DNA of 64,000 nucleotides, taken from the NCBI GenBank assembly GCA_963973975.1, contig CAXBCF010000017.1, positions 559 to 64,558 on the forward strand. Direction: 5' to 3'. The notes under the pieces are model-generated. The model had not been told where the DNA came from. It saw nothing but the letters and a program-made list of their open reading frames with translations, and made no database searches. Both the position numbers and the translations under genes were made by a program. The DNA comes from an uncultured Flavobacteriales bacterium (lineage in GTDB: Bacteria; Bacteroidota; Bacteroidia; Flavobacteriales_E; Vicingaceae). Positions 3,923-23,617 of the stretch are shown piece after piece (positions within the stretch are counted from its first letter, which is position 1; the number at the start of each line of letters is the position of its first letter).

Positions 3923-6900
3923 ATGGCTAACGTAACGTTAACAAAAAAGCAAAACCGTATCAATTTTGCATCTATTAAAAATAAACTGGACTATCCTGAT
4001 TTTCTCGATATTCAACTTAAATCGTTCAAAGACTTTTTCCAGTTAGATACTTCTCCTGAATTTCGTGACACTGAAGGGTTATACAGTGTTTTCAGTGAAA
4101 ACTTTCCAATCACGGATGCCAGAAACCAATTTGTACTCGAATTCTTGGATTACTTTGTTGATCCTCCACGATACAGCATCGATGAGTGCATTGATCGCGG
4201 ATTAACTTATAGTGTGCCTCTTAAAGCAAAACTAAAGTTATACTGTACTGATCCTGAGCACGAAGATTTTGAAACCATCGTTCAAGATGTTTATTTGGGA
4301 ACTATTCCCTACATGACTCCTAAAGGAACTTTCCTAATCAATGGAGCTGAGCGTGTAATTGTTTCTCAATTACACCGTTCTCCTGGAGTATTCTTTGGTC
4401 AGTCAAGACATGCAAATGGTACAAAACTTTACTCTGCAAGAGTAATTCCATTTAAAGGATCATGGATTGAGTTTGCGACAGACATTAACAATGTGATGTA
4501 TGCTTACATCGATCGTAAAAAGAAATTACCCGTAACTACACTTCTTAGAGCAATCGGATTTGAGTTCGATAAAGACATTCTCGATATCTTCGAATTAGCT
4601 GATGAAGTTAAAGTTAGCAAAGCTGGATTAAAAAGAGTGCTTGGAAGAAAGTTAGCTGCTAGAGTTTTGAGAACTTGGGTGGAAGACTTTGTGGATGAAG
4701 ATACTGGTGAAGTTGTTTCTATTGAAAGAAATGAAGTAGTCATTGACCGTGAAACTGTTTTAGAAAAAGAGCATCTTGATCCAATTCTTGATTCAGGTAC
4801 TAAAACTATTATTCTTCATAAAGAAGATGTAAACTCAGCTGACTTTGCAATTATTTACAATACCTTGCAAAAAGATCCTTCAAACTCTGAGAAGGAAGCA
4901 GTAGAGCACATCTACCGTCAATTGAGAAACTCTGAGCCACCAGATGAAGAAACTGCTAGAGGTGTAATCGATAAATTATTTTTCTCTGAAACAAGGTATG
5001 ACCTTGGTGAAGTAGGAAGGTATAGAATCAATAAGAAACTTAACTTGTCGATTGACGATAATACTAAGATTCTTACAAGAGAAGACATTATCTCAATTAT
5101 CAAATACCTTATTGAGTTGATTAACTCAAAAGCAGATGTTGATGATATTGATCACTTAAGTAATAGAAGAGTTAGAACGGTTGGAGAGCAATTGTACAAC
5201 CAGTTTGGTGTTGGTTTAGCTAGAATGGCTAGAACAATTCGCGAACGAATGAATGTGAGAGATAACGAGGTGTTTACACCTGCGGATTTAATTAACGCTA
5301 AAACGCTTTCAGCTGTTATCAATTCCTTCTTTGGAACGAATCAGCTTTCTCAATTCATGGATCAAACGAATCCTTTATCAGAAGTAACTCACAAGAGAAG
5401 ACTTTCAGCACTAGGACCAGGTGGTTTATCGAGAGAAAGAGCAGGTTTTGAGGTGCGTGATGTTCACTACACTCACTACGGAAGACTTTGTCCGATTGAA
5501 ACACCTGAGGGACCAAACATTGGTTTGATTTCTTCGCTTTGTGTTTATGCAAAAGTAAATAGACTTGGATTCATCGAAACTCCTTACCGTAAAGTAGAAA
5601 ACGGTCAAGTAGGTTTTACAAATGATAAAGTAATTTACTTAAGTGCTGAAGAAGAAGACAAGCAAACGATCGCTCAAGCGAATGCAATTGTTGCTGAAGA
5701 TGGTAAGTTTGAATCTGAATTGATTAAAGCACGTTACGAAGGTGATTTCCCAATGGCTTCGCCAGATCAATTAACTTTGATGGATGTTGCGCCTAACCAA
5801 ATTGCTTCGATTGCCGCGTCGTTAATTCCATTTTTGGAACATGATGATGCTAACCGTGCTTTGATGGGATCTAACATGCAGCGCCAAGCAGTGCCACTTT
5901 TGAAACCTGACTCTCCAATTGTTGGAACAGGTCTTGAAAAACAAGTGGCTATTGACTCAAGAGTATTGATCAATGCCGAAGGAAATGGTGTTGTTGAATA
6001 TGTTGATGCCACTAAAATTATTGTAACTTATGATCGATCTGAGGAAGAAGAATTAGTTTCTTTTACCGAATCGACTAAGACTTATAAATTAATCAAATAC
6101 AAAAAAACAAACCAAGGAACTACCATTAACCTTAACCCAATTGTTTTAAAAGGCGAGAAGGTGTTGAAAGGTCAGGTGCTTTGTGAAGGTTATGCGACTG
6201 AAAATGGTGAGTTAGCTTTAGGAAGAAACTTAAAGGTAGCGTTTATGCCGTGGAAAGGGTATAACTTCGAGGATGCGATTGTAATTTCTGAAAAAGTTGT
6301 TTCTGAAGATTTATTTACTTCAGTTCACGTTGATGAGTTTTCACTTGAAGTAAGAGACACTAAGCGTGGTATTGAAGAATTGACAGCGGACATTCCAAAT
6401 GTTAGTGAAGAAGCTACAGCCAACTTAGATGAAAATGGATTGATTCGAATTGGTGCTAAAGTTCAAGAAGGAGATATTTTAATTGGAAAAATTACTCCAA
6501 AAGGAGAATCTGATCCAACTCCTGAAGAAAAATTACTTAGAGCAATTTTTGGAGACAAAGCAGGAGATGTAAAAGACGCTTCATTAAAAGTTCCACCATC
6601 AACTAAAGGTGTTGTTGTAGATAAGAAATTGTTTGAAAGAGCAGTAAAAGACAGAAAGTCTAGAGCTGATGAGAAGAACATTATCGCTAAGTTGGATGAG
6701 GAAGAACGCAAAGAATTAGCTCAACTTAAAGAAAGATTAGTTGAGAAACTTTATACAGTAGTAAACGGAAAAACCGCACAAGGGATTACAAATTACTATG
6801 GTGAAGAGATTATTCCGAAAGGAACGAAATTCACTCAAAAAATTCTTCAGAGAATTGATGACTTTGCTTTCATTGACTTTAAAAACTGGACAACTTCAGA

Positions 6901-12599: not shown

Positions 12600-14774
<2,175 letters not shown>

Positions 14775-14786
14775 CCCTAACCGTAT

Positions 14787-14866
14787 CAAATTACCTCCAT
14801 AGCCCTCGGTTTAAACCGAGGGCTATGGAGATACGAGGCGAAAACCAAACCGTTTCAACGGTTTGG
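14787..14866 (+). repeat. Double-hairpin REP-like repeat, copy A
   Basis: Perfect 36-nt palindrome CTCCATAGCCCTCGGTTTAAACCGAGGGCTATGGAG (14795-14830), then ATACGAGGCGAAAA, then hairpin CCAAACCG-TTTCAA-CGGTTTGG. It is near-identical to 22716-22801. Confidence 0.9.
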
Positions 14867-14877
14867 TATTATTTTCC

Positions 14878-14910
14878 CTAGCCCACGATTTGATTGTGGG
14901 CTAGTTTTTT
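14878..14910 (+). terminator. Third hairpin with T-tract (likely katG terminator; structural homologue of 23254-23281)
   Basis: CTAGCCCAC-GATTTGATT-GTGGGCTAG followed by TTTTTT. Confidence 0.6.
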
Positions 14911-15020
14911 GCTATTATTTAATACGATGTCAACTTAACTTTATTCCACTTTTTCTTAACAGCTTCTAATTTACCACTAGAAAAAAGTAAATTAACCGTT
15001 TGAAATTAAGCAACAGAGGA

Positions 15021-18000
15021 ATGCAGATAAATAGATTGAACCCAAGAAAGGCATTAAACAAAGCCTTTTTGAAAGTAAAGCCGAACAGAACAGAAATTGA
15101 AGGGTTCAAAACGAATCTTATTCAATTGCTCGATAGAATCAATGACGCTGAATCTGAAGAATTTCATAAAAACTTGGTCAGTGATTTTCTCAAAAAAACC
15201 TATTACGAACCCAAGCACTTCATCAACACCAAAGGAAGAAACGATTTAGTAATTCACAATGGAGATAAAGCAAACAGCTCAGTTGGGGTAATTATAGAAG
15301 CAAAAAAATCGACTAACAAAAGTGAAATGGTGAAATCATTTGCTGAGAGCGATACGCCACAGCAAATAATTTCTAAGCTGAATACAAAGGCTTTTCAGGA
15401 ATTGGTGCTGTACTATTTGAGAGAACGAATAACGCACAAAAATCTTGAAGTAAAGCACCTGGTGATTACCAACATCAATGAATGGTTTGTTTTTGATGCG
15501 AGGTTATTCGATAGACTTTTTGCACAAAATAAAAGTTTGGTACAACAATTTAATGATTTTGAAGCCGGACGATTGGCAGATAATAAAACTGACTTTTTCT
15601 ACAAGCAAATTGCCGAACCATTTATTGCAGCGATTAATACCGAAATAGAATTTACTTATTTCAATCTTCAGGATTATCAGAAACCATTGAGAAATGACGA
15701 TAAAACGGATGACAATAAACTCATTGCACTTTTCAAATTACTTTCTCCTGAGCATTTACTGAAATTGCCATTTACTAATGACAGCAATAGCCTTGATAAA
15801 CGATTTTACAGCGAATTGTTGCACATAATTGGTTTAACGGAAACCAAAGAAGGAAGCAAAAAATTAATCAATCGCAACAAGGCTGGTGAAAGAAATTCGG
15901 GAAGCTTTTTAGAAGATGCAATCATTCAATTAGACAGTTTAGATAAAATTAGCCGCTTAGAAAAACCAAGTCAATTTGGCGATACGCAAGAAGAGCGATT
16001 GTTTAATGTGGCTTTAGAACTTTCCATTACTTGGATCAACAGAATTTTGTTTTTGAAATTGTTGGAGGCTCAATTAATTACCTACCACAAAGGCGATCTA
16101 TCGTATGCCTTTTTGAGTTTTGATAAAATCAAAAACTACGATGACTTGAATAGCTTGTTTTTTCAGGTTTTAGCAAAACAATACGATGAAAGAAATGAAG
16201 ATGTAAAACAAGTTTTTGAAAAAGTTCCTTACCTGAATTCATCCCTCTTTGAACCAACAGATATTGAGCATGCAACCTTGTTTATCAGTAACCTGAGAGA
16301 TGATAAAACTATTCCCATTATTTCATCAACAGTTCTAAAAAATGAGCAAGGGAAAAAGCGAACTGGAAGTTTATCTACGTTGGAATATTTGTTTGAATTT
16401 TTAAATTCCTATGATTTTAGCAGTGAAGGTTCTGAAGAAATTCAAGAAGACAATAAAACGCTGATCAATGCTTCGGTGCTCGGTTTGATTTTCGAGAAAA
16501 TTAATGGCTATAAAGATGGTTCGTTTTTTACACCTGGCTTTATTACCATGTACATGTGTCGTGAAACCATTCGAAAAGCAGTGATGCAAAAGTTTAAAGA
16601 AGCAGGTTTTCAACTTGCTGAAAGTGCTGAGCTTTCCGAAAATTTGAACGAAATCTACAACCAAATAAGCGACATTAAAAAAGCCAATGAAATTGTCAAC
16701 AGCATTAAAATTTGTGACCCTGCTGTTGGCTCGGGACACTTTTTGGTTTCGGCGCTCAATGAAATGATTGCAGTAAAAAATGATTTAAATATTTTGCAAG
16801 ACCGCGATGGAAAAAGGCTAAGAGACTATCATGTGGAAGTGGTGAACGACGAGTTGATTGTGACAGACGAAGAAGGAGAATTGTTTGACTACAAACCCAA
16901 CAACAAGGAAAGCCAACGCATACAAGAAACACTCTTTCACGAAAAGCAAACCATTATTGAAAACTGCTTGTTTGGAGTGGACATCAACCCCAATTCGGTG
17001 AAAATTTGCCGCTTGCGTTTGTGGATTGAGCTGTTGAAAAATGCCTATTACAAGAATGAAAAAGAGCTGGAGACTTTACCAAACATTGACATTAACATAA
17101 AATGCGGAAACTCTTTAGTAAGCCGTTTTGCCATTGATGCTGACATTAAAAAAGCCCTGAAAAAAAGTAAGTGGACCATTGATAGTTACCGCATTGCGGT
17201 GGCAACTTACCGAAATGCGCAAAACAAGGAGCAGAAAAGAGCAATGGAAAAACTGATTGCCGACATTAAATCGGATTTTAGAAGTGAAATTTCCATGAAT
17301 GACCCCAAGGCAAAGCGCTTGCGAAAATTGTCTGGTGATTTATTTCAGATGACTCAGCAAACACAGCTTTTTGAAATGAGCAAAAAAGAAAAAACCGCTT
17401 GGAACAAAACAGTAGCAAAACTAAGTGAAGACACTAAAAAGCTAGAAACCGAAATTGAGGTAATAAAAGCTAACAAGATTTTTGAAAATGCTTTTGAATG
17501 GCGTTTTGAATTTCCGGAAGTGCTGAATGATGACGGCGACTTTATGGGCTTTGATGTGGTGATTGGGAATCCACCTTATATAAGACAAGAAGAGTTTTCG
17601 GAACTAAAACCATATTTAAAAATCCATTTTGAAATCTATCATTCTTTAGCGGATTTACTTACTTATTTTGTAGAACTAAGTCATAATATTCTGAAGCAAA
17701 ACGGAGTATTTCAATTCATTATTTCAAGTAAATTTACGAGAGCTGGATATGGTAATGTTATGCGTAAGTTTTTATCTAAAAAAACAGAAATAACACACTT
17801 TATTGACTTTGGTGGCAAACCAGTTTTCGATGAAGCAACAGTAGATGCTGCGATTATTGGTTTCGTAAAACAACAGCCAACAAATGAAGGTACATTTGTT
17901 TTTAAAGAAGTTTTAAAAGAAGATAATGTCTCTTTAAATTTTGATAATTATATTAAAACTAATGCAAACCAATTTCCAATAAAAGCTCTAACAGAAGATG

Positions 18001-18833
18001 TTTGGAGTTTTGATAATCCCAAATGGCTTACGATTATTGATAAAATTAATAAAAATGGTATTCCTTTAAGTGAATGGAACATAACAATTAATTTTGGAAT
18101 TAAAACTGGCTACAATGCGGCATTCATAATTGATGAAGCAAAGAAAAATGAACTAATTGAAGCAGACTCGAAATCATTAGAAATTATAAAACCTTTACTA
18201 AGAGGTAGAGATATTCAAAAGTACGTTGCTGATAATGTAGTAAATTGGGTGATAGGAACATTTCCTAGTAAAAAATTAGATATTGAAGAATACGTAAGCA
18301 TTAAAAATTACCTAATAACTTTTGGAAAAACAATTCATCAAACTGGTGAAAAAGGTTCAAGAAAGAAAACATCTCATAAATGGTTCGAAACGCAAGACAA
18401 TATTGCATTTTGGCAAGATTTCGAAAAGCCAAAATTAGTATGGAAAAGAATTGGATCTTTACTTCGCTTTTGTTATGATGAGAGTGGTGCATACTGTCTA
18501 GACAGTACTTGTATAGCAACGGGTTCAAAAGTTAAATTTTTATCTGCTGTGCTTAATTCTAAAATGTGCAATAAAGAACTTTTTAGACTTTCGCCAAAAA
18601 CAGGGACAGGAGATTTGATAATCAGTGTACAAGCATTAAACCCATTAAGAGTTCCAATGCCAACGGAAAAGCAAGAAAATGAAATTTGTTCTATACTCGA
18701 TAAAATTATTGAAATCAAAAAACTAGACCCCACAGCCGACACCACGGCACTTGAAAAAGAAATCGACCAATTAGTTTATGCTTTGTATGATTTGTCGGAG
18801 GAGGAGATAAAGATTGTGGAAAATTCTAAATGA
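15021..18833 (+). CDS. Type IIG restriction-modification enzyme (fused PD-ExK endonuclease, gamma-class N6-adenine methyltransferase and TaqI-like specificity domain)
   Basis: N-terminal D82...E100-A-K102 (NDLVIHNG...VGVIIEAKK, numbering from the 15000 ORF). FFTPGFITMYM (motif X-like), ICDPAVGSGHFL (SAM motif I, 16716), NIKCGNSLV, and FDVVIGNPPY (motif IV, 17568). C-terminal FGIKTGYNAAFII and LLRGRDIQKY are typical of TaqI-like TRDs. I prefer ATG 15021 over the TTG at 15000. Confidence 0.85.
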   Translation: MQINRLNPRKALNKAFLKVKPNRTEIEGFKTNLIQLLDRINDAESEEFHKNLVSDFLKKTYYEPKHFINTKGRNDLVIHNGDKANSSVGVIIEAKKSTNKSEMVKSFAESDTPQQIISKLNTKAFQELVLYYLRERITHKNLEVKHLVITNINEWFVFDARLFDRLFAQNKSLVQQFNDFEAGRLADNKTDFFYKQIAEPFIAAINTEIEFTYFNLQDYQKPLRNDDKTDDNKLIALFKLLSPEHLLKLPFTNDSNSLDKRFYSELLHIIGLTETKEGSKKLINRNKAGERNSGSFLEDAIIQLDSLDKISRLEKPSQFGDTQEERLFNVALELSITWINRILFLKLLEAQLITYHKGDLSYAFLSFDKIKNYDDLNSLFFQVLAKQYDERNEDVKQVFEKVPYLNSSLFEPTDIEHATLFISNLRDDKTIPIISSTVLKNEQGKKRTGSLSTLEYLFEFLNSYDFSSEGSEEIQEDNKTLINASVLGLIFEKINGYKDGSFFTPGFITMYMCRETIRKAVMQKFKEAGFQLAESAELSENLNEIYNQISDIKKANEIVNSIKICDPAVGSGHFLVSALNEMIAVKNDLNILQDRDGKRLRDYHVEVVNDELIVTDEEGELFDYKPNNKESQRIQETLFHEKQTIIENCLFGVDINPNSVKICRLRLWIELLKNAYYKNEKELETLPNIDINIKCGNSLVSRFAIDADIKKALKKSKWTIDSYRIAVATYRNAQNKEQKRAMEKLIADIKSDFRSEISMNDPKAKRLRKLSGDLFQMTQQTQLFEMSKKEKTAWNKTVAKLSEDTKKLETEIEVIKANKIFENAFEWRFEFPEVLNDDGDFMGFDVVIGNPPYIRQEEFSELKPYLKIHFEIYHSLADLLTYFVELSHNILKQNGVFQFIISSKFTRAGYGNVMRKFLSKKTEITHFIDFGGKPVFDEATVDAAIIGFVKQQPTNEGTFVFKEVLKEDNVSLNFDNYIKTNANQFPIKALTEDVWSFDNPKWLTIIDKINKNGIPLSEWNITINFGIKTGYNAAFIIDEAKKNELIEADSKSLEIIKPLLRGRDIQKYVADNVVNWVIGTFPSKKLDIEEYVSIKNYLITFGKTIHQTGEKGSRKKTSHKWFETQDNIAFWQDFEKPKLVWKRIGSLLRFCYDESGAYCLDSTCIATGSKVKFLSAVLNSKMCNKELFRLSPKTGTGDLIISVQALNPLRVPMPTEKQENEICSILDKIIEIKKLDPTADTTALEKEIDQLVYALYDLSEEEIKIVENSK

Positions 18834-18908
18834 CAATAACGATTATCATGTCAGAAACACTTATCCTTTTGTTAAACTACACTTTAACGTTTTCATATAA
18901 TAAAAATT

Positions 18909-21900
18909 ATGGCTAGTCTTCAACAAATTCAGCAAGCTTTAATTAATATGAATGAGACACTTTTCGAAGAAATGTGTGGTATTTACTTATCTTACGAATT
19001 TCCCTTACATAGGTCTTTTAATCCCCAAAATCATAAAACAAAACAGAAAACAAAAAAGGGAACTCCAGATATTAGTTATAAGCTTCCCAATGAAGGTTAT
19101 TTATTTGCTCAAATAACAACTCAGGAAAATATTGGAAAAAGCCTAACAACAAAGTTGAAGAATGATATTAAAGAATGCTTCAATATTGAAAAAACTAAAA
19201 TTGAGATAGAGAAGATTAAGGAAATTGCTTTATGTTATAATGAACAAATAAAGCCTAGTGACGAAGAATTAATTAATGATTTTGCAAAAAAAGAATTTAA
19301 TATTGTTCCACATCATTTTGGGCTTAAGCGAATCGCAAAAGACATTCTCTTTAAATATCACTTCATTGGAAGAGAATACCTGAAACTAGAATTTGGTACT
19401 GGTCAGATAGTTTCTATCAAGCAGTTTATTAAAACTTATGAAAGCGGTGGTCAGAGTTTAGCTACTCCACTTAACAATCATTATCTTGAAAGGAATCAAG
19501 ATTTGCCAAACTTGATTGATTCCATTATCAATAATAATATTGTCATTATTCATGGAGTAGCAGGATCTGGTAAGTCAAAACTTGCTATAGAAGGGATTGA
19601 AAAGTTCATTGAAGAAGAAACTGAATATATTGATCTGGCACTTTTTCCTAATGGAGGTGACTTAATCCACGATCTCATTAGTGAAATAGATAATTCAAGG
19701 AAATATATTCTCTTTGTAGATGATGTTAATAGAATCGAGCAGTTTACATCTGTTTTAGCTCACTATAGAAAAGCAACCGAGAATAGCCTTAAATTAGTTT
19801 TAACAGTCAGAGATTATGCTTATTCTGAAGCAAAGTCAAAACTGCTAGGTCTTAAATATAGTGATATTCATACAGAAAGGTTTAGTGATGATGAAATTAG
19901 AGACTTAGTCGAAGCTGCACCTTTTAATATCAAGAATTCAAAATTTCGATTTAAAATATCATCAATAGCTAAAGGCAATCCACGACTAGCAATCATGACT
20001 GCAAAACTTGCCTTGGAACATCAAAAAATTGAAGCTTTAGATAACATTTTTGATCTATTCGACCAATATTTCACTTCTTTTATTTACGATAATGATATTT
20101 TAAATGAACCAATTAATTTAAAAGTATTAGGATTGCTTTCGTTCTTTAACAATATAGAACATGAAAAAGGAAGAGAAATTGAAAAACTATCTTCTAATTT
20201 CAATCTGGATGAAAACAAGATAGTTGATTCAATAGAAAAATTACACACACACGATCTTATTTTACTAAATTTTGGTTATGCAAAAATTGGTGAGCAAAAC
20301 CTTGCTACTTACTTCTATTACAAAGTCTTTATTAAAGATAAATTGTTATCAATAAACAATTTGTTGAAATATTATTTTTCAACTCATTCGAATAGATTTT
20401 CGGACAGTATAAAATCAATCATTGAGCATTTTGGAGTAGAAAGTTTAGGTACTGTAAAACCATTAATTAAAAAGTATTGGCAGGAACAAGATTTAGAGCT
20501 TCGTCAACGACTCAGTTTTCTTGATATTTTCAGACAGATCATACCAAATGATGTTTTAGTTTTTATTGAAAGCTATATTGAAAGTTTACCTAGTACCACA
20601 AACCCAATATTTAAAATAGAGGAAAATAATGACTCCGATCATTCCTTTATATACGAACCTAATGCTCTTCGTTTATTGTTTAGTTTTTATAATGACTTAA
20701 ACTATCTAGATGACGCTTTCCAACTATCTTTTTCATTAATAAAAAAGAAACCAGATTACTTTAATAAGTTAATCCAAAATTTGAAAGAAAAATTTGGAAA
20801 GAGCTTCAACGATGAGAAGTCCAAATTTGAGAGACAACATAAGCTAATTGATTATTTAATTGGTATGTCTAAAAAAGAAGAGGGGGACTTGTATAAGATT
20901 TCATTGATTGCCGTTTCACAAAGTATTTTATCTACTTTTAAATTGGATACTGAAGGTTTTAAAAGCGAAGACGTCAATGAAGATTTAGTTGATTCTATTA
21001 AGAGGATTAGGGAGAAGCTAAAGAGATTTTTATATGAAAATGTTGAAAATTTTAGTGAACCGATATTAGAAGTTTTGTTAGACAATACAATTAACAATGT
21101 TGCCATATCAAGAGAAACACACGAATTTGATCTAACTGTGACAACATCTCTAATGGCAGGTTGTCTTAATAGTAGTGACTTTAGACACTGTTTGCTAGTA
21201 CAAGAGGAGTGTTGGCTAATGAATAAATTGGGCTCATCCTCAAATGAACTGGAAAGTATAAAAATTCAGTTTTCACATTCTGCTTATGAAACCTTTATTA
21301 ATTTAAATAGAGAGCGTTTAAGGGGGAAGGTGGATTTTGAATTTGAAAACTCGGATGAGTTTGATAAATTAAAAACAACAGATCAAAAACAGTTTTTTCA
21401 TTTTAGAAGCACTAAGGAAGTTGACAATTTTATTGAACATTTGAGACTAATATTAAATTGGGATTTTCTTTCAAAACATAGTTTATATCAATTAAGACAG
21501 TCTATTTATATCATCTTAGAGGAAAACAATAGACAGAACCGAAAAATTGGATTTCATTTACTTTGTAAGTTAATTACTTTTTTTAACCTGAGAAAAGAAA
21601 CAATTGTTGATGCTTCTTTTTTTAAAATAATTTCTGACGAAAATGAAGTTTTAGAAAAGCTTTGGGAATATATAGTTTCTAATAATTTACAACCAATATG
21701 GAAGTTATTTGTGCTAGATTCAATTCCTGCATATAGAATTGAAAAAGTACATTATGATCGATTGATCAATACTATTTCTATCCAAAAAAATGATTGGTAC
21801 TCACTCAAGAATTTTGAAAAGTACTCTAATGTTGATTCTCAGGTAATAGAGAAAATCGTGAAACAAATAACTGATTTAAACGAGAAAGGTGGTGACTATA

Positions 21901-22640
21901 AAATATGGTTAGATAGAGAATTTCATCAAAATTTGGGAGAAAATAATCAGCTTGAGCTTGCTAAAGAGTCCTATCTTCAACAATACTTTATGAATAAACA
22001 TTTTGATCATGGAGGTAAAGCCTTATTATCAATTTTAGAAAAGGATAAAAAATTTCTAAACGTGTTATTAAGGAGTATTGTTGAAAGACAAATAAAGCTG
22101 AAAGCTATTGAGCACAGAGAGTTAAGTATTGTTTGGGAATTAGAAGGGGCAGAAGAAGTTATTGATAACGCTATTTTATTGATGGTTGAAATGAATACTA
22201 ATTATACAATAGGTGAAGATTTTATCAATACATTTTTTTATGAATCACATCTTCGTTCAGTGCAAGTAAACACATATTTATTAAATTTAATAAAGAAATA
22301 TTACTATAGAGTGGATGTAGTTAATATTGCTTTTAATGTAATAAACTACTCTAAAAAAGACTTATTTGATAAAGCATTCGTAACTTATTTAAGTATTAAT
22401 CAGTCAAAAGATGACTTTGAACAAATAGATTGGTTTGAAAATCAAATAATATATCCGGGTGGTGCTAAGGTTAGTAAGATAAAGATTAGCAAATGGCAGT
22501 ATTTACTCAATTTAGTTGAAGGTCATGAAAAACGGTTAGATTTAATTGAAATTAAAAGATTTATCAATAGCCAAATTGGACACCAAGAAAATTTTGCAGT
22601 CATTGAAGAGAGTTGGAATTTTTTAAAAGAAACATGGTAG
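18909..22640 (+). CDS. STAND-type P-loop NTPase, 1243 aa, with unassigned N-terminal (~165 aa) and C-terminal (~870 aa) regions
   Basis: Walker A IIHGVAGSGKSK (19554), Walker B YILFVDDV (19704-19727), LVLTVRD (sensor-1-like Arg) and a GxP-type motif AKGNPRLAIMTAKLA (19974) follow the order seen in NB-ARC/NACHT-like STAND ATPases. It sits 75 nt downstream of the Type IIG gene on the same strand. Confidence 0.75.
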   Translation: MASLQQIQQALINMNETLFEEMCGIYLSYEFPLHRSFNPQNHKTKQKTKKGTPDISYKLPNEGYLFAQITTQENIGKSLTTKLKNDIKECFNIEKTKIEIEKIKEIALCYNEQIKPSDEELINDFAKKEFNIVPHHFGLKRIAKDILFKYHFIGREYLKLEFGTGQIVSIKQFIKTYESGGQSLATPLNNHYLERNQDLPNLIDSIINNNIVIIHGVAGSGKSKLAIEGIEKFIEEETEYIDLALFPNGGDLIHDLISEIDNSRKYILFVDDVNRIEQFTSVLAHYRKATENSLKLVLTVRDYAYSEAKSKLLGLKYSDIHTERFSDDEIRDLVEAAPFNIKNSKFRFKISSIAKGNPRLAIMTAKLALEHQKIEALDNIFDLFDQYFTSFIYDNDILNEPINLKVLGLLSFFNNIEHEKGREIEKLSSNFNLDENKIVDSIEKLHTHDLILLNFGYAKIGEQNLATYFYYKVFIKDKLLSINNLLKYYFSTHSNRFSDSIKSIIEHFGVESLGTVKPLIKKYWQEQDLELRQRLSFLDIFRQIIPNDVLVFIESYIESLPSTTNPIFKIEENNDSDHSFIYEPNALRLLFSFYNDLNYLDDAFQLSFSLIKKKPDYFNKLIQNLKEKFGKSFNDEKSKFERQHKLIDYLIGMSKKEEGDLYKISLIAVSQSILSTFKLDTEGFKSEDVNEDLVDSIKRIREKLKRFLYENVENFSEPILEVLLDNTINNVAISRETHEFDLTVTTSLMAGCLNSSDFRHCLLVQEECWLMNKLGSSSNELESIKIQFSHSAYETFINLNRERLRGKVDFEFENSDEFDKLKTTDQKQFFHFRSTKEVDNFIEHLRLILNWDFLSKHSLYQLRQSIYIILEENNRQNRKIGFHLLCKLITFFNLRKETIVDASFFKIISDENEVLEKLWEYIVSNNLQPIWKLFVLDSIPAYRIEKVHYDRLINTISIQKNDWYSLKNFEKYSNVDSQVIEKIVKQITDLNEKGGDYKIWLDREFHQNLGENNQLELAKESYLQQYFMNKHFDHGGKALLSILEKDKKFLNVLLRSIVERQIKLKAIEHRELSIVWELEGAEEVIDNAILLMVEMNTNYTIGEDFINTFFYESHLRSVQVNTYLLNLIKKYYYRVDVVNIAFNVINYSKKDLFDKAFVTYLSINQSKDDFEQIDWFENQIIYPGGAKVSKIKISKWQYLLNLVEGHEKRLDLIEIKRFINSQIGHQENFAVIEESWNFLKETW

Positions 22641-22715
22641 TCAAGTTAAATGAATGTATAACATATACATCAGTCTTAAATATTAAGCTAAATGGATAAT
22701 CCATTCTAAACATAA

Positions 22716-22801
22716 CAAATTATCTCCATATCTCCATAGCCCGGGGTTTAAACCCCGGGCTATGGAGATACGAGGCGAAAACCAAACCGTTTCAACGGTT
22801 T
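22716..22801 (+). repeat. Double-hairpin REP-like repeat, copy B
   Basis: CTCCATAGCCCGGGGTTTAAACCCCGGGCTATGGAG (22732-22767), then the identical ATACGAGGCGAAAACCAAACCGTTTCAACGGTTT. An 8-nt tandem duplication TCTCCATA TCTCCATA lies at the left edge (22723-22738). Confidence 0.9.
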
Positions 22802-22816
22802 ATAAAACGATCAATT

Positions 22817-23251
22817 ATGCCGCATTCATACATTAAAATATGGATACATGCCATTTGGGCAACAAAAGAGAGAAAACCCTTGATTAACTCAACCATTGAG
22901 AAAAAGGTGTATCAGTTTATTTCTGATCAATTGCGTGAGCAGGGTTGTCCTGTTAGAATTATCAACGGAATGCCCGACCACATTCATTGTTTGTTTTTAT
23001 TAAGCCGACAAAAATCCATAGCAGAAGTTATAAAGCAGATAAAAGGCAGCAGTTCACATTTTATCAATCATAATAATCTAATCCCTGAAAAATTTTCATG
23101 GCAAACAGGATATGCCGCATATTCAGTTTCTGAGTCTATTGTTGAGAGGGTATTTAATTATATCAAAAAGCAAAAGGAGCATCACCAAAAACAAACATTT
23201 CTTCAAGAATATGAGGAATACATAAAATTATATGGGTTGGATAAAAATTAA
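22817..23251 (+). CDS. IS200-like Y1 transposase / REP-associated tyrosine transposase (RAYT)
   Basis: 144 aa with HUH motif PDHIHCLF (H55-I-H57, nt 22979) and C-terminal catalytic-Tyr helix VFNYIKKQKEHH (Y115, nt 23159). The gene is immediately flanked by palindromic repeats. Confidence 0.85.
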   Translation: MPHSYIKIWIHAIWATKERKPLINSTIEKKVYQFISDQLREQGCPVRIINGMPDHIHCLFLLSRQKSIAEVIKQIKGSSSHFINHNNLIPEKFSWQTGYAAYSVSESIVERVFNYIKKQKEHHQKQTFLQEYEEYIKLYGLDKN

Positions 23252-23253
23252 CT

Positions 23254-23281
23254 TTAGCTCATGATTTAAATAATGAGCTAG
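23254..23281. terminator. Hairpin between convergent tnpA-like gene and yciH-like gene (right-end hairpin / bidirectional terminator)
   Basis: 8-9-bp stem TAGCTCAT / ATGAGCTA with a 10-nt loop, 3 nt after the tnpA stop and 10 nt from the yciH-like stop. Confidence 0.5.
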
Positions 23282-23290
23282 GTATGTATC

Positions 23291-23617
23291 TTACCCCCCA
23301 ACACGCTTCACTTTATAGCCTTTTTTGGAGAGCACTTCCATCACCTTATCGCGTTTTTCTCCTTGAATAATAATTTCTCCATCTTTTACGCTGCCGCCAA
23401 CGCCACAAGCATTTTTTAGGGTTTTGCCCAAGTCATTCAAGTCGGCATCGTTGCCAATAAAACCACGCACAACGGTGGCTGTTTTTCCACCCCGATTTTT
23501 CTTGTCTTGATATACTTTTAGTTCTTGTTGTTGAGGTGGAAGGGTGTCAATTTCCTCTTCTTCTTCAGTTTTGAAATTTGGATTTGTTGAAAAAACGATG
23601 CGATCTTTTGATTTCAT
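23291..23617 (-). CDS. SUI1/YciH-family translation initiation factor
   Basis: 108 aa with RGGKTATVVRGF and LKNACGVGGSVKDGEIIIQGEKRDKV, typical of the SUI1 family. Confidence 0.9.
   Translation of the reverse strand: MKSKDRIVFSTNPNFKTEEEEEIDTLPPQQQELKVYQDKKNRGGKTATVVRGFIGNDADLNDLGKTLKNACGVGGSVKDGEIIIQGEKRDKVMEVLSKKGYKVKRVGG

Follow-up and report, generated by a model that had tools for sequence, protein, structure and literature searches.

The window analysed here is a stretch of 64,000 nucleotides from an uncultured Flavobacteriales bacterium, in which we find, in order, rpoC, a DUF3467 gene, katG, a left hairpin module, an RM gene, a STAND gene, a right hairpin module, the gene tnpA, a last hairpin and a convergent SUI1 gene. 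The left neighbour of the hairpin-bounded island, katG (catalase-peroxidase; 12603-14774, plus strand; Pfam peroxidase, 244 bits), has its stop codon directly against the left module. The first island gene encodes a Type IIG RM / PglX-like methylase-nuclease (15000-18833, plus strand, probable start ATG at 15021; Pfam DUF7149, DUF7814, Eco57I, MmeI_Mtase and TaqI_C) and the second a STAND NTPase (18909-22640, plus strand; Pfam nSTAND3 / NB-ARC) with a GC content of 27-31%. The right neighbour is a SUI1/yciH-like gene on the minus strand (23291-23617; Pfam SUI1).

The surroundings of the island vary among relatives. The genome contains two katG paralogues that are 60% identical (window 12603-14774 and C27:25894-28083); the one in the window is a patchy second paralogue, with orthologues of 79-84% identity in a few genera of the family, where they stand in a different context. 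The junction between tnpA and SUI1 (23282-23291) is a synteny breakpoint with a conserved B12-riboswitch operon on its other side, and in at least 11 of the 14 related genomes examined the genes found at C14:4181-6328 of our genome stand directly downstream of SUI1 instead. With SUI1 neighbours that differ in relatives and a patchy katG whose context also differs, the locus is, judged from gene order, a rearrangement point. A search of relatives for an empty katG/SUI1 site yielded no such allele: ours is the only genome of its genus, and within the family the gene order is not shared on either side. In the interval from the left module to the RM gene (14938-14957, plus strand) lies the 5′ half only of a second, unrelated hairpin-forming repeat, TTATTCCACTTTTTCTT...AAAAAGTGGAGCAAAAATCAAGGCTGTTAAG, which has 6-7 copies in the genome (C2:132779, C5:41050, C10:6780, C14:6458 and C25:10013, plus the window copy). 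The copy at C14:6458 is full and adjoins the genes that relatives have next to SUI1.

The right element (22690-23281) comprises, in order, hairpins HP-B, HP1 and HP2, tnpA and a degenerate HP1; the left copy comprises HP1, HP2 and a degenerate HP1. On the right, HP-B (22690-22705, plus strand; AAATGGATAATCCATT) fits the consensus AAATGGnTAAAnCCATT found upstream of HP1 in other genomes. HP1-R (22722-22769, with HP1 proper at 22730-22769; no strand assigned) folds and scores 61 bits with R1, a covariance model of HP1 that we built only from other genomes. HP2-R (22784-22801, plus strand; AAACCGTTTCAACGGTTT) ends 15 nt ahead of the tnpA ATG. An 8-nt tandem duplication, ATCTCCAT-ATCTCCAT, at the 5′ foot of HP1-R (22722-22737) is absent from the left copy and may be the footprint of slippage or of strand transfer. 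On the left, the 5′ spacer (14775-14794, plus strand; CTAACCGTATCAAATTA versus CTAAACATAACAAATTA) is homologous to the spacer between HP-B and HP1 of the right copy. It is followed by HP1-L (14795-14830; no strand assigned), a perfect palindrome with 15-bp arms (CTCCATAGCCCTCGG-TTTAAA-CCGAGGGCTATGGAG) that scores 57-58 bits with R1 on both strands, and by the small hairpin HP2-L (14844-14867, plus strand; ACCAAACCGTTTCAACGGTTTGGT), which fits AACCGTTTyAACGGTT, the consensus of HP2 in 23 full units from other loci. The first-pass annotation had reported the same double hairpin at both borders in direct orientation. Its hairpins and its spacings of 11 nt (HP2-L to the third hairpin), 15 nt (HP2-R to the tnpA ATG) and 2 nt (tnpA stop to the last hairpin) agree with the sequence, but in the alignment the left-copy homology begins about 17 nt earlier than first read, near 14775 and directly after the katG stop, and HP-B is present at the right border only.

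The double hairpins form a direct repeat (14792-14864 versus 22729-22801) of 73 nt with 93% identity, recovered both by a repeat scan and by reading the borders. It includes a stretch of 42 identical nucleotides, for which 100 shuffles gave no match, and these 42 nucleotides take in unpaired spacer. As single-stranded DNA, either strand of both copies folds into HP1, a perfect palindrome of 36-40 nt, and then the small HP2 (z = -8 to -12); the left module as a whole folds at -42 kcal/mol (z = -11). The two HP1 copies differ only by paired, compensatory changes (CTCG/CGAG versus CGGG/CCCG). BLASTN over the complete assembly, 3.0 Mb in 78 contigs, finds no more than two strong module copies and one tnpA, and the left copy is its sole gene-less one. 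The spacer between HP1 and HP2 is lineage-specific. Since the two window copies share a spacer sequence that differs between genomes, they are, on the evidence of the alignment, recent paralogues that arose in this lineage or were brought in together.

The third hairpin of each module is a weaker relative of HP1. HP1′-L (14878-14910, plus strand) is a degenerate HP1 of the 'GATTT' subtype, CTAGCCCAC-GATTTGATT-GTGGGCTAG plus T6, scoring 15.4 bits with R1, and its stem TAGCCCAC/GTGGGCTA is the commonest HP1 stem. HP1″-R (23254-23281, plus strand; TTAGCTCATGA-TTTAAA-TAATGAGCTAG; 15.5 bits; fold z = -3.3) begins 2 nt past the tnpA stop, between tnpA and the convergent SUI1 gene. Run on the 64-kb window, R1 returned the two HP1 copies at 57-61 bits, with 23246-23289 (15.5 bits) and 14879-14903 (15.4 bits) as its fifth and sixth best matches. 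As the next-best matches in the window, the third hairpins are decayed HP1 copies related to each other and to HP1, which upholds the earlier view that they share one design; and because they adjoin the only two strong copies, chance is very unlikely. The genome thus holds two strong and two degenerate HP1 copies. Genome-wide, R1 gave one further match of third-hairpin strength (C7:59845-59872, 17.3 bits; AAATAGCCTACTATTTAATAAATATTAC), which looks like a decayed copy or a chance AT-rich hairpin. Both third hairpins also resemble a recurrent symmetric subtype, ATAGCCCACGATTTAAATCGTGGGCTAT, solo copies of which follow genes in the genomes G223 (four), G177 (one) and G109 (one). The left third hairpin, with 12 pairs plus TTTTTT, matches a terminator scan, and probably now serves, by exaptation, to terminate katG transcription.

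The tnpA gene (22817-23251, plus strand) encodes a Y1/HUH enzyme of 144 aa (PF01797, 91 bits) with intact motifs: DHIH at 54, SWQ at 94 and YIKKQKEHH at 115. The protein passes the NCBIfam IS200 model NF033573 (66 bits, cut-off 55) but not the model for REP transposases, NF047646 (34 bits, cut-off 80), and it shows no Y---NP motif. Its best PDB match is ISDra2 TnpA (2XM3), with IS608 TnpA also among the best, and its C-terminal ...FLQEYEEYIKLYGL... is conserved among homologues of 60-82% identity. By motifs, length and host phylum the predicted product, an IS200-branch protein, matches TnpA-Y1 subclass 1.2. This subclass has been characterised by DH[IV]H, WQ and Y---Q--HH (YIKNQKEHH) motifs, a length of ~148 aa, low copy number and occurrence in Bacteroidetes; Quentin et al. 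2018 (PMC6006769) enter it as 'REP: no' and describe it as mostly devoid of terminal structures like those of IS200 and as not having the properties of an IS in common. The label 'RAYT', part of the first annotation of the unit as RAYT/IS200-like, therefore does not suit the protein, which fails NF047646 and has the features of subclass 1.2. A literature search found no later paper on partner hairpins for subclass 1.2, and an enzyme-hairpin system of the kind considered here seems to be undescribed for it.

HP1 is a widespread element in Bacteroidota. The core pattern ATAGCC-N4-GTTTAAAC-N4-GGCTAT, searched in one-per-species genomes, gave more than 120 loci among the matches listed, nearly all of them in Bacteroidota, and no match in the 2.9 million viral contigs of IMG/VR. 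At the loci listed, the four variable stem positions are 91-95% Watson-Crick, each with four standard pair types, and pairing runs ~5 positions further into flanks that are otherwise unrelated. About one third of these HP1 copies sit within a three-hairpin unit of HP-B, ~20 nt, HP1, ~20 nt and HP2, whose spacers are kept in length and not in sequence; gene-less copies are the commonest form. The gene context of HP1 is convergent in 41 cases, tandem in 52 and divergent in nine, mostly at gene 3′ ends. In the class sample HP1 is present in 67 of 401 genomes. It had been noted at the outset that hundreds of copies at random sites would make this a generic REP; our genome has two strong copies, a recount of 21 others gave 1-31 in the 18 that matched, and we discarded that identification. 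HP1 also frequently forms tandem or nested arrays (L074, L093, L101, G369 and G406). Some arrays of HP1 or half-HP1 with a period of ~62-73 nt lie beside tnpA (L074 408-832; G369:C4:760861-761268; L123 7260-7380) and are superficially CRISPR-like, but they are without spacer diversity.

We then related HP1 to the enzyme gene. Homologues of tnpA were detected by tblastn in 24 of the 120 fetched HP1 loci, most of them full length and 51-82% identical, and in nearly all of these loci the start of the gene is ~85 nt downstream of HP1 and 10-15 nt downstream of HP2. A canonical HP-B/HP1/HP2 unit precedes the ATG in ~15 loci, and at least nine (L144, L101, L074, L125, L116, L062, L050, G106 and G109) carry another unit, in direct orientation, immediately downstream of the gene. 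The association also holds across genomes: among the 401 of the class, 67 have HP1, 33 a close tnpA and 19 both (Fisher p = 2e-8), and among 87 of the family the counts are five, four and three, with 0.23 expected to have both (p = 4e-4). HP1 is likewise present in 14 of 18 genomes with homologues of at least 58% identity; conversely, a close tnpA is absent from 48 of the 67 HP1-positive class genomes. The earlier suggestion that the hairpins belong to the adjacent Y1 gene is thus borne out by linkage to its homologues, 60-82% identical, in ~25 loci of other genomes, and on this comparative evidence the hairpins are the cognate module of that gene. A close tnpA occurs once in each of the 33 genomes and once in our own, so that no transposition burst is visible; the sole exception seen is L144, with two copies.

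Evidence for mobility comes from sister species elsewhere in the sample. In G109 and G106, a 687-nt block consisting of an HP-B/HP1/HP2 unit, tnpA and a second HP-B/HP1/HP2 unit lies between two conserved genes, and in five sister species (G110, G107, G103, G027 and G102) the same site measures 49-173 nt and the block is absent. This presence or absence indicates that tnpA and both flanking units were inserted or lost as one piece. Elements of the IS200/IS605 family insert 3′ of a fixed tetra- or pentanucleotide and leave no target duplication; here the intergenic flanks are too diverged to place the element ends. Solo units could result from recombination between two direct units or from copying in trans. 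At three of the empty sites (L252, L254 and L256, in G103, G102 and G027) the position of the block is taken by an unrelated AGATTGCGGGTCAAGCCCGCAAT-like hairpin repeat, which suggests that this intergenic site is a hot spot for small palindromic elements. A plasmid search for close tnpA genes returned only matches of 35-39% identity, and metagenome contigs gave no match to the lineage-specific spacer and none to relatives of the STAND gene; together with the viral search, these results reveal no vehicle.

Taken together, these results lead us to regard 14775-14910 as a gene-less copy of the hairpin module of the Y1/HUH gene 8 kb downstream, within a REP/RAYT-like or IS200/PATE-like system, a reading to which we assign a probability of roughly 70%. 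The module family, its linkage to the gene and the sites empty of the block support a REP/PATE-like gene-less derivative. Across Bacteroidota such a system consists of one enzyme gene per genome, with a three-hairpin unit before and often after it, and of further gene-less hairpin copies spread at gene 3′ ends. By analogy with the TnpA proteins of IS608 and ISDra2, a dimer of the enzyme would bind the single-stranded form of the hairpins at the replication fork, and would then cut and rejoin beside them, so that hairpin-bounded DNA could be moved or copied. We infer from the same analogy that the enzyme acts catalytically on these hairpins, and the modules may have a role in moving the island. 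The miniature may have originated through gene loss. The proposal that the left copy represents the full unit minus its gene agrees with the order of parts but does not extend to a clean deletion: the linker between HP2-L and the third hairpin is unlike any part of the right copy, and likeness falls from 93% for HP1-HP2 to ~68% for the third hairpins. Likewise, its designation as a REP/PATE-like non-autonomous derivative fits an element with both ends and no gene, but does not extend to mobility of its own, as the HP1-HP2-HP1′ layout occurs nowhere else among ~190 loci.

With its unrelated linker and its more diverged third hairpin, the miniature could instead have formed when a unit landed next to a solo hairpin that was already in place. 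Here the third hairpin after katG would be a pre-existing solo HP1 of the GATTT subtype, next to which an HP1-HP2 unit arrived later, with HP1 sites attracting copies; the likeness to a left end plus a right end would then be coincidence. The solo GATTT-subtype copies after genes in G223, G177 and G109, and the frequency of tandem and nested arrays, are consistent with such a history. However, in both elements of the window a GG-type HP1-HP2 is combined with a GATTT-like HP1 whose end is CTAG, a shared derived combination unseen at other tnpA loci, and the katG orthologues of relatives each have a terminator of their own, unrelated to this hairpin. On balance we consider this history rather unlikely.

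The arrangement of the window also invites a larger view, in which the left module is the left end, and either HP1″-R or the right module the right end, of an 8.5-kb transposon whose cargo of RM, STAND and tnpA genes would be excised as a single-stranded circle and pasted by the Y1 enzyme. The modules are direct, on the same strand, and bracket the island exactly, and the GC content of the island (27-34%) is below that of its flanks (35-40%). Comparable brackets occur elsewhere. In G458 a homologous RM gene (84% identity over the N-terminal 680 aa) lies between direct repeats of the unit plus a tnpA 5′ stub (L266:456-631 and 5554-5770), and in L144 a T9SS gene is flanked by the two tnpA copies; these cases are all the backing that this view receives from other genomes. 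Viewed from the unit, the association with RM genes is frequent: intact RM genes end inside HP-B or just ahead of it in L112, G135 (L184), G458 (L266) and L108, which places a unit at the RM 3′ end in all four. On the other hand, no second copy of the block was found, the metagenome contigs contain neither its spacer nor close STAND relatives, and a unit is present at just one of 29 fetched RM homologue loci. An extra internal module would compete as an end, and the known IS200/IS605 elements are shorter than 2.5 kb. Moreover, GC is uneven within the island, which suggests piecemeal assembly, and the layout of the miniature is unique. We therefore view movement of the 8.5-kb block as a single cargo transposon as unlikely.

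Several further observations concern the RM gene and the units. Homologues of the gene are patchy, being found in 41 of the 401 class genomes; their N-terminal part is conserved and their C-terminal part variable. With a unit at one of 29 loci the link between RM genes and units is one-sided, and we rejected the idea that the two are regular partners. In about a dozen units the end of the RM protein (...EEIKIIENG*) persists as a remnant immediately 5′ of HP-B, some of them downstream of tnpA; a candidate remnant of this kind before HP-B of the right unit in the window was set aside on re-inspection, the match being AT-rich and weak. The RM gene of the window has the C-terminus ...EEIKIVENSK*, with its stop codon inside AAATGACAATAACGATT (18828-18844), which resembles a decayed HP-B (11 of 17). 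Given this resemblance, the STAND gene may lie between the original HP-B of the RM gene and the present unit. In G458, a small hairpin repeat, GTGGTTGGTGTTGTCACCAACCAC, cuts tnpA after ~15 codons in both of the units around the RM gene (L266, on G458:C3, 410-726 and 5717-5762). The same genome has two identical HP1 copies 9.9 kb apart (L267; G458:C4:126043 and 135982), flanking a minus-strand cluster of an epimerase, a KAS III-like protein, membrane proteins and a Fic-like gene, which may be another accessory block between hairpins.

Two other accounts of the bracketed island appear improbable to us. In one, the island was integrated into a unit that already stood there, through site-specific or homologous recombination, leaving a 90-nt direct repeat as attL and attR without any involvement of the Y1 enzyme. 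Direct repeats around a low-GC island are the classic signature of such an event, unit-borne remnants of the conserved RM 3′ end could act as a homology patch, and the right junction is a synteny breakpoint. Yet besides the Y1 gene there is no integrase or recombinase in or near the island, the HP1 copies differ by paired changes in a manner unlike a fresh duplication, and the left copy is without HP-B and has an extra hairpin. In the other, which we hold to be just as doubtful and which draws on an analogy with integron attC sites, the units would be single-strand recombination sites for the Y1 enzyme. Genes such as those for the Type IIG RM enzyme, the STAND protein and TnpA itself would be cassettes that enter or are swapped at a site made up of the conserved RM 3′ end, HP-B and HP1. 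If true, this would explain the RM C-terminus remnants in units, the duplicated remnant-plus-unit segments around tnpA, and the direct units that bracket RM homologues in two unrelated genomes.

The left end of IS200 carries a terminator hairpin and a hairpin that occludes the ribosome-binding site. Plain regulatory hairpins of this kind, acting as terminators or as a tnpA RNA leader and alike by convergence only, would suit the terminator-like left third hairpin and the HP1 copies at gene 3′ ends, but as a sole explanation they are highly improbable and already largely refuted by the 42 identical nucleotides that cover unpaired spacer, by A-runs on the wrong side of HP1 for a terminator in several loci, by the tie of the family to one enzyme clade with insertion polymorphism, and by the absence of any Rfam family at threshold.

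For genome annotation, the gene-less derivative favoured here implies that such hairpins indicate where a mosaic is joined and can also act as terminators. It further suggests that Y1 hairpin modules may be connected with how Type IIG restriction genes and other defence genes move or are reshuffled in Bacteroidota, a connection that can be tested.

When compared with known RNA families, the module has, like psRNA14 (RF02351) and Acido-Lenti-1 (RF01687), a long perfect hairpin whose loop is UUAAA-like and then a second hairpin, but its scores fall below the gathering thresholds of both (46.3 bits against 60 and 23.6 against 37). The 16 other unit-carrying loci that we compared with Rfam gave no match at the gathering threshold. 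As all matches, including those to generic miRNA hairpins, are sub-threshold, we rejected membership in an Rfam family.

Among DNA elements, the system resembles IS200 (IS200/IS605) in that the Y1 transposase is the only gene, a strong and a small hairpin stand ahead of the start codon, hairpins occur at both ends on one strand (in the window and in at least nine other loci) and sister species either have or lack the entire block. Unlike IS200, the element is never multi-copy in the 33 genomes, and its ends are direct three-hairpin repeats of ~105 nt with a perfect palindrome, whereas those of IS200 are short imperfect palindromes. The left copy is similar to a PATE in having both ends without the gene, an HP1-HP2 that is 93% identical to the left end of its parent and a third hairpin of the same subtype as the right hairpin of the parent. 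It differs from PATEs and MITEs in that the miniature layout is single, being unique among the loci compared.

The arrangement is analogous to that of REP/RAYT systems (the REPtron; E. coli TnpA_REP and Pseudomonas REPIN-RAYT), in which a single-copy Y1 gene is also flanked by its own hairpin repeats and gene-less copies are dispersed at gene 3′ ends. Unlike the REP/RAYT enzymes, the protein described here is of the IS200 branch and not of class 2. In addition, its flanking units are direct instead of inverted, its hairpins number 1-31 copies as opposed to hundreds (typically >100), no GTAG or CGTC tag is present at the hairpin foot, and the system is patchy among relatives. This comparison points to a low-copy REP-like system beyond the proteobacterial RAYT class.

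Another correspondence is with subclass 1.2 (PMC6006769), which the window protein matches in its DHIH, SWQ and YIKKQKEHH motifs, its 144 aa, its low copy number and its Bacteroidota host. In contrast to the published description, the clade studied here has a conserved three-hairpin module on either side of the gene, copies without the gene that are dispersed, and insertion polymorphism. An IS200-branch subclass listed without repeats or IS properties would thereby gain a partner DNA element and signs of mobility, and with this partner its function becomes directly testable with defined hairpin oligonucleotides.
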